Positions 19,012 to 22,652 of a DNA stretch of 64,000 bases are shown here, piece by piece. The stretch lies in assembly GCF_056746865.1 (NCBI RefSeq), contig NZ_CM163382.1. One strand, written 5' to 3'. Position 1 is the stretch's first letter. Each line of letters begins with the position of its first letter. Both the position numbers and the translations under genes were made by a program. The notes below the pieces were generated by a model that searched no databases, had not been told where the DNA came from, and worked only from the letters and a program-made list of their open reading frames with translations.

Positions 19012-20436
19012 ATGCAACATAAGTTACTGATTAACGGAGAACTGGTTAGCGGCGAAGGGGAGAAACAGCCTGTCTATAATCCGGCAACGGGGGAAGTTTT
19101 ACTGGAGATTGCCGAGGCATCTGCAGAGCAGGTCGATGCCGCTGTTCGTGCAGCAGATGCAGCATTTGCCGAATGGGGGCAAACCACGCCGAAAGCGCGT
19201 GCGGAATGCCTGCTGAAACTGGCGGATGTAATCGAAGAAAATGGTCAAGTTTTTGCCGAACTGGAGTCCCGTAACTGTGGCAAACCGCTGCATAGTGCGT
19301 TCAATGATGAAATTCCGGCGATTGTCGATGTCTTTCGCTTTTTCGCCGGAGCAGCTCGCTGCCTGAATGGTCTGGCGGCAGGTGAATATCTTGAAGGTCA
19401 TACTTCGATGATCCGTCGCGATCCGTTGGGGGTCGTGGCTTCGATCGCACCGTGGAATTATCCGCTGATGATGGCTGCGTGGAAACTGGCTCCGGCGCTG
19501 GCGGCAGGGAATTGCGTAGTGCTCAAACCATCAGAAATTACCCCGCTGACAGCGTTGAAGTTGGCAGAGCTGGCGAAAGATATCTTCCCAGCTGGCGTGA
19601 TTAACGTGCTGTTTGGCAGAGGCAAAACGGTGGGCGATCCGCTGACCGGACATCCCAAAGTACGGATGGTGTCACTGACGGGCTCTATCGCCACTGGGGA
19701 ACACATCATCAGCCATACCGCGCCGTCCATAAAGCTTACTCATATGGAACTTGGAGGCAAAGCGCCAGTGATAGTTTTTGATGATGCGGATATTGAAGCG
19801 GTGGTCGAAGGTGTACGTACTTTTGGCTATTACAATGCCGGACAGGATTGTACTGCGGCTTGTCGGATCTACGCGCAAAAAGGTATTTACGATACGCTGG
19901 TGGAAAAACTCGGTGCTGCAGTGGCAACGTTAAAATCTGGTGCGCCGGATGACGAGTCTACGGAGCTTGGACCTTTAAGCTCACTGGCGCATCTCGATCG
20001 CGTCAGCAAAGCAGTAGAAGAGGCGAAAGCGACAGGGCACATCAAAGTGATCACTGGCGGTGAAAAGCGCAAGGGTAATGGCTATTACTATGCGCCGACG
20101 CTACTGGCTGGCGCATTACAGGACGATGCCATCGTGCAAAAAGAGGTATTTGGTCCGGTAGTGAGTGTTACGCTCTTTGACAATGAAGAACAGGTGGTAA
20201 ACTGGGCAAATGACAGCCAGTACGGACTTGCATCCTCGGTATGGACGAAAGATGTGGGCAGGGCGCATCGCGTCAGCGCACGGCTACAATATGGTTGTAC
20301 CTGGGTCAATACCCATTTCATGCTGGTAAGTGAAATGCCGCACGGTGGGCAGAAACTTTCTGGTTACGGCAAGGATATGTCACTTTATGGGCTGGAGGAT
20401 TACACCGTCGTCCGCCACGTCATGGTTAAACATTAA
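19012..20436 (+). CDS. patD: Gamma-aminobutyraldehyde dehydrogenase (aldehyde dehydrogenase family)
   Basis: 474-aa ORF with ALDH motifs (catalytic Cys context GQDCTAA, ELGGKAP). Confidence 0.9.
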
Positions 20437-20446
20437 GTTAAATGTT

Positions 20447-20478
20447 AGTGGCTGTTATAGGGCGGCCACTATCGTTTT
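20447..20478 (+). terminator. Possible terminator hairpin after patD
   Basis: agtggc ... gccact inverted repeat followed by atcgtttt. Confidence 0.3.
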
Positions 20479-20658
20479 AGGTTCTGAGTGTAATGGTGAT
20501 TAAGTATCAGAATGATTACATTAATAACTAGCGGAAAAATTAGGCAGTTATTATGATCTAAATGTATGTTGGTGATTTTTCATCCTGTCATAGTTGATTC
20601 GCATAAGGCTTTAGAGTATCGTTATTAACCTAATAATTTATAAGTAGAAGTATTAACA

Positions 20659-21468
20659 ATGAAAGTTCAATTGTATAAATTCACGGAAGATAAAAATAAA
20701 ACCCTTACCTTCAGGTGGACGAAAAAACACTTTGAGTTTTGTATGGATAATAAAATCTTTTTAAATCATAAGGGGAAGAAGTCGTATAAAGAAAGAAATT
20801 TATTTCTTTTCTCAAAAGGTGACAAGATAACAATTGAAGATAATGTTATTGCTGAAGAATATTCAACAATGCCTGTAAAAAATTTCTCCAGTGTCGGCGC
20901 TTTTTCATTCCCGACCTGTCATTTTACAGGGAATATACATATAGGTCGATTTTGTAGTATTGCATCAAATGTAAAAATAATGGGAGGAAATCATCCTTTG
21001 AATCGTTTTACTACTCACATGATGACTTATAACGGTGAATTTGATAAGTTTGCTAAGAGTGAGTTTGAACGTAGCTGGACATTGAAACCATTCATTACCA
21101 AACCTGAAAATCCGATTATAGGAAATGATGTCTGGATAGGAAATGATGTTGTACTGAAAGGTGGCATCGCAATAGGTGATGGTGCTGTTATTGCTGCCAA
21201 TTCCGTTGTTACCAAAGATGTGCCCCCATATGCCATAGTTGCAGGAGTTCCTGCAAAAATAATCAGATTTAGATTTGATTCAAATGTTATTGATGAATTG
21301 TTGAGAATAAAGTGGTGGAATTATAATTACTCAGATCTTCCGGATAATAACAAATGTGATGATATAAATTATTTTGTTGAAGAGATGAATCGATTGATAT
21401 CAAATGGAAATATTCAAGAGATGGACTATAAAAAATTCAATCTTTCTGAGATATTTAGAGACCTATAA
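20659..21468 (+). CDS. Hexapeptide-repeat acetyltransferase, XAT/Vat (streptogramin A / xenobiotic acetyltransferase)-like
   Basis: 269-aa ORF in a low-GC islet; IGRFCSIASNVKIMGGNHPLNRFTTH and IGNDVWIGNDVVLKGGIAIGDGAVIAANSVV resemble XAT-family motifs. Confidence 0.65.
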   Translation: MKVQLYKFTEDKNKTLTFRWTKKHFEFCMDNKIFLNHKGKKSYKERNLFLFSKGDKITIEDNVIAEEYSTMPVKNFSSVGAFSFPTCHFTGNIHIGRFCSIASNVKIMGGNHPLNRFTTHMMTYNGEFDKFAKSEFERSWTLKPFITKPENPIIGNDVWIGNDVVLKGGIAIGDGAVIAANSVVTKDVPPYAIVAGVPAKIIRFRFDSNVIDELLRIKWWNYNYSDLPDNNKCDDINYFVEEMNRLISNGNIQEMDYKKFNLSEIFRDL

Positions 21469-21869
21469 TTATCTGTTCTGCATGATAAATGGGCAAGATA
21501 ACCAGTTCGGGGTTTGCAATTTCAATGGGACAGCGTCATCAAGGAGGTTGCAATCATCCTGCCATGCATATACTTTACGCCATCTTTTTATATTTACTTT
21601 ATTCCCTGAAAGTATAAAGCATTTATAGACTCCCGCGCGTCTAAAGTATTGATGATAGAAAAATGTGAAAACAAGGTTCCCTTTGAATCAGTAAGCTGTC
21701 TGTATAGACGACAGGAGGGGGATGTTTTCTACTTATTTCAATGTAGATGTCAGGAAAAAGAAGTAAATATTAAGGATAATGTTGTAAACCTGGAGAGTAT
21801 GAGATGATCTTGCGTACTGTCAGAGCACTGATTTCTCTGACAGTACGTGCTGCGTGCAAAATCACTACA

Positions 21870-21965
21870 TCAAATAAACCAGCCAAATCTCATAGAGATA
21901 AGAGTAAACAAACCAACAGCAGCAAAGACATTTATCAGTACTACAGTTCTACTGGAAACATTCAT
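21870..21965 (-). CDS. yncL: 31-aa small hydrophobic protein, YncL-like
   Basis: Minus-strand ATG at 21965 with aggtgg SD gives MNVSSRTVVLINVFAAVGLFTLISMRFGWFI; resembles the K-12 small membrane protein YncL from memory. Confidence 0.5.
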   Translation of the reverse strand: MNVSSRTVVLINVFAAVGLFTLISMRFGWFI

Positions 21966-22159
21966 TTTTGCCACCTTTTATCATTGCCCCTATGTGTATA
22001 GTACGGGTTAAGAAAATCCGCAATAATACTCATTCTGAAGATGGATAAGGGCAAGTTGCTGTTTGATGATTTTTTCTCAAACTGGTGAAAAAACTTGATG
22101 CACGTCAAAAAATGACGCATATTTGCGCGCGTTTTATTCATCTGGCTGGACGCCCGTAC

Positions 22160-22333
22160 ATGTCTCTCTATCAACACATGCTTGTTTTTTATGCGGTTAT
22201 GGCAGCAATCGCATTTCTTATCACCTGGTTTCTTTCTCACGATAAGAAACGCATCCGTTTCTTAAGCGCCTTTCTGGTGGGGGCAACATGGCCGATGAGT
22301 TTCCCGGTGGCGCTGTTGTTTTCACTGTTTTAA
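22160..22333 (+). CDS. ortT: Orphan toxin OrtT (small membrane protein)
   Basis: ATG at 22160 gives MSLYQHMLVFYAVMAAIAFLITWFLSHDKKRIRFLSAFLVGATWPMSFPVALLFSLF, 57 aa. Confidence 0.75.
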   Translation: MSLYQHMLVFYAVMAAIAFLITWFLSHDKKRIRFLSAFLVGATWPMSFPVALLFSLF

Positions 22334-22418
22334 ATCTTACTCACTGGCTTGACGGCACCACACAGACTTATATCATTTGGATGAATCGATAAATTTCACA
22401 AGTGGCTAAGGAGAAAGT

Positions 22419-22652
22419 ATGTCGCATCTGGATGAAGTCATCGCGCGCGTGGATGCCGCGATTGAAGAGAGCGTCATTGCCCATATGAACGAATTATTAA
22501 TCGCCCTGAGCGATGACGCGGAGTTAAGTCGGGAAGATCGCTATACCCAGCAGCAGCGTTTGCGCACCGCTATTGCTCATCATGGTCGCAAGCATAAAGA
22601 AGATATGGAAGCGCGCCACGAACAGTTAACCAAAGGCGGTACCATCCTCTGA
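22419..22652 (+). CDS. ydcY: Small protein YdcY
   Basis: 77-aa ORF with SD; position matches K-12 order. Confidence 0.8.
   Translation: MSHLDEVIARVDAAIEESVIAHMNELLIALSDDAELSREDRYTQQQRLRTAIAHHGRKHKEDMEARHEQLTKGGTIL

Follow-up and report, generated by a model that had tools for sequence, protein, structure and literature searches.

We have analyzed a short open reading frame (ORF) and the hairpin that follows it in a 64-kb window of DNA, the window being the whole stretch under study. The ORF is yncL, a gene already known and annotated, which encodes a small stress-response membrane protein. We give a probability of roughly 70% to the reading that the hairpin is a protective stem-loop lacking a U tract, which fixes the 3′ end of the mature yncL mRNA after termination by Rho. 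The features of the locus are collected in Table 1; all positions are those of the window unless a K-12 coordinate is given.

Results

The small ORF is yncL

The ORF lies on the minus strand, and both the sequence and its translation place the ATG at 21965-21963 and the TGA stop codon at 21872-21870. The 31 codons read from this ATG encode exactly MNVSSRTVVLINVFAAVGLFTLISMRFGWFI. The ORF listing extends the same frame to 21870..21974 by using an upstream GTG start, which places the residues MAK before MNVSS. The peptide was compared with the NCBIfam equivalog model for YncL (NF000537), giving a score of 72.5 bits (cut-off 35; E = 1.8e-20), with residues 1-30 aligned to positions 1-30 of a 30-position profile. 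A Pfam search with the same peptide found no model for YncL. The ORF with its surroundings, 401 nt in all, was matched in 5,415 of the 5,426 complete E. coli genomes and was 100% identical to strain 118UI. The RefSeq annotation beneath the matches, in about 5,400 of the 5,426 genomes, reads "yncL: stress response membrane protein YncL".

Compared with yncL of K-12 (b4598), the coding sequence differs by a single base, leading to the change F13V (protein WP_001303494.1 here, WP_001310798.1 in K-12); the other 30 of the 31 residues are identical, as are the Shine-Dalgarno sequence and the 3′ hairpin. The neighboring genes also correspond to those of K-12, with ortT, ydcY, ydcZ, mnaT and curA upstream and patD downstream. 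The gene thus occupies the orthologous position, divergent from ortT/ydcX and convergent with patD, although in the present strain yncL and patD are separated by a 1.3-kb island with a gene for a CatB-related acetyltransferase. The 31-residue peptide is strongly hydrophobic (GRAVY 1.39; best 19-residue Kyte-Doolittle window 2.22), which is consistent with one membrane helix. The first-pass annotation of this DNA had pointed to K-12 YncL in describing a minus-strand ATG preceded by aggtgg, a hydrophobic 31-codon peptide and a single predicted transmembrane helix. The identity was right, as the one-base difference, the RefSeq name and the NF000537 score show; the start, ribosome-binding sequence and peptide agree exactly with the sequence and translation, and the hydropathy values are consistent with the helix.

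Table 1. Features of the yncL locus and the basis on which each was assigned
Feature	Position	Strand	Basis or detail
yncL coding sequence, 31 codons plus TGA	21870..21965	minus	Sequence, RefSeq, K-12 comparison, NF000537, coding signature, hydropathy
Shine-Dalgarno sequence AGGTGG, 5 nt upstream of the ATG	21971..21976	minus	Sequence; aggtgg also found ahead of the ORF in almost every orthologous locus
CTATACA, candidate sigma-S-type -10 element	21995..22001	minus	Predicted from sequence only
Perfect 13-bp stem with 9-nt loop in the yncL 3′ UTR	21813..21847	minus	RNA 5′ arm 21847-21835, loop 21834-21826, 3′ arm 21825-21813
Extended imperfect outer helix, 21870-21856 pairing with 21813-21799	21799..21870	minus	Minimum free energy (MFE) structure
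Equivalent of the mapped K-12 mature 3′ end, stem +3 nt	21810	minus	Transferred from K-12 by sequence identity
C-rich, G-poor tract directly after the stem, candidate Rho-utilization region	21763..21812	minus	13 C versus 3 G in 50 nt

The same annotation had named lack of conservation as an ORF in relatives as the finding that would speak against the gene. The opposite is observed. A profile- and alignment-guided scan of contigs, taking one genome per species, found 50 orthologous loci, so that 50 species keep the ORF, in 11 or more genera of Enterobacteriaceae. These comprise Escherichia, Citrobacter, Salmonella, Intestinirhabdus, Klebsiella, Raoultella, strains labelled Enterobacter, Pseudescherichia, Pseudocitrobacter, Pluralibacter and Trabulsiella. 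A search of protein representatives with the YncL peptide gave nine matches. Across 47 distinct yncL coding sequences the entropy at the three codon positions was 17.1, 8.9 and 35.2, and this dominance of third-position variation is a clear coding signature. Two contigs bearing yncL were attributed to Gram-positive genomes, a 459-nt contig of Sporosarcina luteola (L035) and a contig of a Collinsella metagenome-assembled genome (L050). The former is identical to a Klebsiella pneumoniae locus across the ORF and 113 nt downstream. Both are almost certainly the product of contamination in assembly or binning rather than real occurrences.

Much is already known of the gene product. YncL is reported to be made and located in the membrane in K-12 (Hemm et al., 2008, 2010, as cited in PMC12542507), and it can be described as an inner-membrane protein with a single helix, produced in stationary phase and under stress. 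Heat shock and growth in minimal medium induce the gene, and overproduction of the protein leads to sublethal (partial) depolarization of the membrane and condensation of the nucleoid (PMC12542507). The intramembrane protease RseP has YncL among its in vivo substrates (PMC10470546). In Salmonella the transcript of yncL (STM14_1932) was originally named as the sRNA STnc1110, and a yncL-lacZ translation fusion depends on RpoS (PMC5437024); a peak of RpoS was found between yncL and ydcX by genomic SELEX in E. coli (PMC5493296). The sRNAs RprA and KilS have been reported as partners of yncL RNA, recovered in chimeras (including those of a TRIC-seq preprint).

The candidate -10 element upstream of yncL would place the start of transcription near position 21988. 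A scan for sigma-70 promoters found none in the region upstream of yncL. A sigma-70-like match on the minus strand running from 21823 to 21796, over the 3′ arm of the hairpin, scored 9/12 and was rejected, being at the level of chance (3 such matches found, 3.1 expected).

A perfect hairpin without a U tract follows the gene

The arms of the hairpin are 13 nt in length and 100% complementary, and 7 of the 13 base pairs are G-C. This is the only perfect inverted repeat of at least 13 bp (loop 3-12) in the window, where 0.07 are expected from Markov-simulated sequence. Folding the 81 nt of minus-strand RNA between 21790 and 21870 gave a free energy of -30.9 kcal/mol, with z = -5.3, and none of 200 shuffled sequences folded as well. 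When the predicted mature RNA (21988 to 21810) is folded, the 13-bp stem stays as the terminal hairpin. The sequence of the hairpin is identical in K-12.

On the yncL strand the stem is followed by the tail caagatca, and the scan for intrinsic terminators made no call at the hairpin. There is no U run on this strand, and the opposite strand has no T run either. The combination of a G+C stem and a U run that would mark an intrinsic terminator is thus lacking, in agreement with the first-pass annotation, which had remarked on the missing U tract; just one T is found within 8 nt after the stem. That annotation was also correct that a perfect 13-bp inverted repeat follows the stop codon, although its coordinates of 21812-21846 were one base off (21813-21847), and its distance of about 25 nt from stop to stem is actually 22 nt.

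A longer structure can be drawn. In a read-through transcript an imperfect outer helix can enclose the hairpin, so that the extended structure spans about 23 bp in the MFE fold. This helix is weakly conserved, its pairing is broken by E. coli variants, and most of it is taken away at the mature 3′ end.

Searches of complete genomes with the full hairpin gave a median of two places per genome. Most probably the second place is a self-match of the palindrome to the other strand, because it vanishes when half of the hairpin is used as the query, leaving a median of one. The hairpin is therefore single copy, which speaks against a dispersed repeat of the REP or BIME kind. A search of 20400-22500 with the covariance models of Rfam 15 gave no match with E up to 1, and no family like STnc1110. 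A CTGT...ACAG motif was considered as a LexA box, but its spacing of 23 nt is not the 8 nt of such a box, and this reading was rejected.

The surroundings of the hairpin

A low-GC island of 1.3 kb occupies 20437-21763, between patD and the yncL hairpin, with about 31-37% GC compared to about 52% in the flanks. It carries a gene on the plus strand (20659-21468) for a 269-residue hexapeptide-repeat protein, annotated as a CatB-related O-acetyltransferase; against the models for Vat, CatB and phosphonate transferases the protein fell below the cut-off. The island is absent from K-12 and is found in roughly a quarter of E. coli genomes sampled for spread. The 3′ end of patD is repeated imperfectly and in direct orientation on either side of the island (TAAAcATTAAG and TAAAtATTAAG), and from about 50 nt downstream of the yncL stem the island takes the place of the sequence antisense to patD.

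Two other small hairpins were observed nearby. At the left edge of the island, just past the patD stop codon (20437-20490, plus strand), inspection by eye reveals a hairpin AGTGGC...GCCACT with the T-rich tail atcgttttaggtt, at which the patD transcript may end instead of at the hairpin beside yncL. Between yncL and ortT, at about 22115-22132 and 32 nt upstream of ortT, there is a short G+C hairpin ACGCATATTTGCGCGCGT with a run of A on one side and of T on the other, which the scan calls as terminator-like on the minus strand. Term-seq in K-12 recorded a weak plus-strand end at this hairpin (1517357; 848 reads, intrinsic score 3.18, Rho score 0.5; Adams et al., 2021). This hairpin may act like an attenuator in the leader of ortT.

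The stem covaries between species, and two classes of hairpin occupy the site

In all the orthologues a strong hairpin lies 12-41 nt past the yncL stop codon, and these hairpins are of two classes. In Escherichia, Citrobacter and Salmonella the stems are homologous, with CAGAGAG/CTCTCTG at their core and no U tract after them; downstream, C is well above G in the orthologues from Escherichia and Citrobacter, with Salmonella grouped in the same class. Klebsiella, Raoultella, Pseudocitrobacter, Pseudescherichia, Pluralibacter and related strains have canonical terminators at the same site, comprising an A tract, GC stem and T tract, and downstream of these C is about equal to G, with no C bias. 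The two share their distance from the stop codon (about 20-35 nt) and their presumed role in ending the transcript; they differ in that the hairpin studied here has no U tract, has just over half of its pairs as G-C and, in K-12, shows Rho-sensitive read-through. Canonical terminators stand at the same distance from the stop codon, and the position is therefore a conserved site of transcript ending. The locus has thus switched terminator type between enterobacterial clades.

Covariation was examined in an alignment of 25 sequences from Escherichia, Citrobacter and Salmonella, over a helix of 16 pairs. In this helix 82% of cells are paired, compared with 33-52% when the partner strand is slid, and both sides have changed in 10 of the 16 pairs. 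The covariation score is 0.250, against 0.127 ± 0.014 for shuffled alignments, none of 500 of which reach it. Since the arms covary between species, the stem is selected as a structure and not as a sequence. The mismatches divide almost evenly between G-U (19) and A-C (20) and favor the RNA of neither strand, so the convergent transcript may also use the hairpin.

The covariation is seen only between species. Within E. coli there are no compensatory changes; the variants found are changes in the loop, one wobble and some changes that weaken the stem. A common allele (L003 and L004, compared with the window) has GTG replaced by ACT in the loop and GATCATC replaced by GATCTTC in the outer helix. 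The base of the stem is weakened in strain E29, where a change of A to G creates a U-G wobble and the terminal pair is lost. With a 76-nt hairpin query, 879 of 5,412 records fell into the band of 90-95% identity.

The yncL transcript of K-12 ends just beyond the stem

Published Term-seq data for K-12 contain a 3′ end on the minus strand at NC_000913.3 position 1517039, with 75,265 reads at OD 0.4 and 536,300 at OD 2.0 (Adams et al., 2021, supplementary file 1). The table classes it only as "antisense to patD". The yncL gene of K-12 occupies 1517099..1517194, placing this end 60 nt past the stop codon and 3 nt past the stem (...CUCUGACAGUACG-CAA). In the 61-nt strings given by Adams et al. the 3′ end is at position 51, a reading that we checked against the canonical terminator of a neighboring row. 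The published end belongs to yncL.

In its table of Rho-dependent termination, the same study places a minus-strand region at 1516753, lying 286 nt beyond the 1517039 end. The ratio of downstream to upstream coverage there was 9/220 without bicyclomycin and 72/106 with it (Rho score 16.6; p = 5e-21; Adams et al., 2021). Bicyclomycin has thus lifted the downstream coverage in K-12 from 4% to 68% of that upstream. The Rho score is calculated over windows of 800 nt, so that the point of termination is placed roughly, and the score by itself is no proof of trimming at 1517039. All of the transcript data are from K-12, from which the present strain differs in sequence beginning about 50 nt downstream of the stem. 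Up to that point the two share the hairpin, and from its base composition the tract that follows the stem could serve as a rut site in the present strain.

Discussion

We propose that the yncL mRNA is ended in two stages. Transcription would start at a sigma-S-type promoter, for which the CTATACA sequence is the candidate -10 element, and RNA polymerase would pass through the hairpin, since the U tract needed for release of the RNA is missing. Rho would then load onto the untranslated C-rich, G-poor RNA just past the stem, leading to termination within a few hundred nucleotides. The tail would be trimmed back by 3′-to-5′ exonucleases until they were halted by the 13-bp stem. The outcome would be a discrete, stable and abundant yncL mRNA of about 180 nt, with its end 3 nt past the stem. 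That the 3′ end is made by trimming and not by direct termination is something we infer, and an end so close to the stem could also reflect weak direct termination followed by nibbling. The same events probably occur in the present strain, whose sequence departs from that of K-12 about 50 nt past the stem. The first-pass annotation had offered that the hairpin might be a stabilizer or a processing site, and of the ideas considered this has the best support, from the dominant K-12 end at stem +3 and the increase in read-through when Rho is inhibited.

A class of such ends has been described. Dar and Sorek (2018; PMC6061677) reported that the steady-state ends of Rho-terminated transcripts lie right after stable stem-loops lacking U-rich stretches, that rut sites follow directly, and that the stems give protection against PNPase and RNase II. 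The yncL hairpin shares several features of the class. It is a stable stem-loop without a U-rich stretch; in the published K-12 tables, for a sequence identical to that present here, the steady-state end is right past the stem; read-through increases on inhibition of Rho (in K-12, measured over the 800-nt windows, with a downstream sequence that differs here); and the RNA just downstream is rich in C and poor in G, a statement of composition only. Compared with the class as set out there, the yncL stem is unusually long and perfect, the protection against exonucleases is putative here, and the hairpin lies between convergent genes, so that it may serve both strands. As a protective stem-loop the hairpin is an ordinary, well-conserved member of an already described class of 3′ ends.

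Might the hairpin instead terminate transcription itself without a U tract, perhaps in both directions for convergent transcripts? The transcript on the other strand would be that of patD in K-12, and that of the acetyltransferase gene in the present strain. The location of a strong stem between convergent genes would suit such a role, as would the canonical and bidirectional-looking intrinsic terminators that Klebsiella, Raoultella and other genera have in this position, the very sharp and abundant 3′ end of K-12, and the symmetry of G-U and A-C mismatches, which is compatible with use of both strands. Nevertheless, the near absence of T after the stem, the lack of a T run on the other strand and the silence of the terminator scan all argue against it, and an efficient intrinsic terminator would have prevented the large effect of bicyclomycin in K-12. 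In addition, the ExcludonFinder article (PMC12288877) places patD-yncL among the convergent pairs with overlapping transcription, which implies read-through. We therefore regard direct termination as unlikely. The same listing as a convergent overlap could be taken to favor cleavage by RNase III, acting on the long helix or on a duplex of the convergent transcripts, with mutual regulation of patD and yncL of the excludon type; yncL is moreover among the mRNAs checked by northern blot in a tiling-array study of RNase E and RNase III (Stead et al., PMC3082872), and the extended structure of about 23 bp would offer a substrate. But RNase III cuts within duplexes, whereas the mapped end lies outside a perfect stem that is left intact; the outer helix is little conserved even among strains of E. 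coli; and in the present strain patD is 1.4 kb away while the hairpin is unchanged. This makes an RNase III site very unlikely indeed.

A role at the level of the DNA has the least to recommend it. The palindrome is perfect and the boundary of the 1.3-kb island is only about 50 bp away, so it might be the binding site of a dimeric protein, a site of recombination for the island, or a dispersed repeat. However, the arms vary and yet stay complementary, with double changes in 10 pairs, and the loop varies without constraint; this is the pattern of a folded strand and not of a recognized sequence. The hairpin is also single copy, matches no Rfam or repeat family and is equally present with and without the island, and we consider such a role extremely improbable. 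Finally, the yncL transcript might serve also as a regulatory RNA or a sponge for sRNAs, the hairpin being its stability module, or the hairpin might be a two-way 3′-end element coupling the convergent genes. The regulatory idea arises because of the number of stationary-phase reads in K-12, the STnc1110 label and the chimeras with RprA and KilS. We view both proposals as very doubtful.

Returning to the proposed protective stem-loop on a Rho-terminated mRNA, what does the locus tell us? The sub-threshold ORF that was picked out by eye is a real and known small-protein gene, and this has little significance beyond tidy annotation. Added to it are the reassignment to yncL of a 3′ end hitherto listed as antisense to patD, and the change of terminator type between enterobacterial clades. 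If the regulatory-RNA reading were true, the covarying 3′ hairpin without a U tract would be a stability module of the yncL RNA. The locus is a neat, small example of the turnover of terminator type at one site, and it could be a test case for the stabilization of Rho-dependent 3′ ends.
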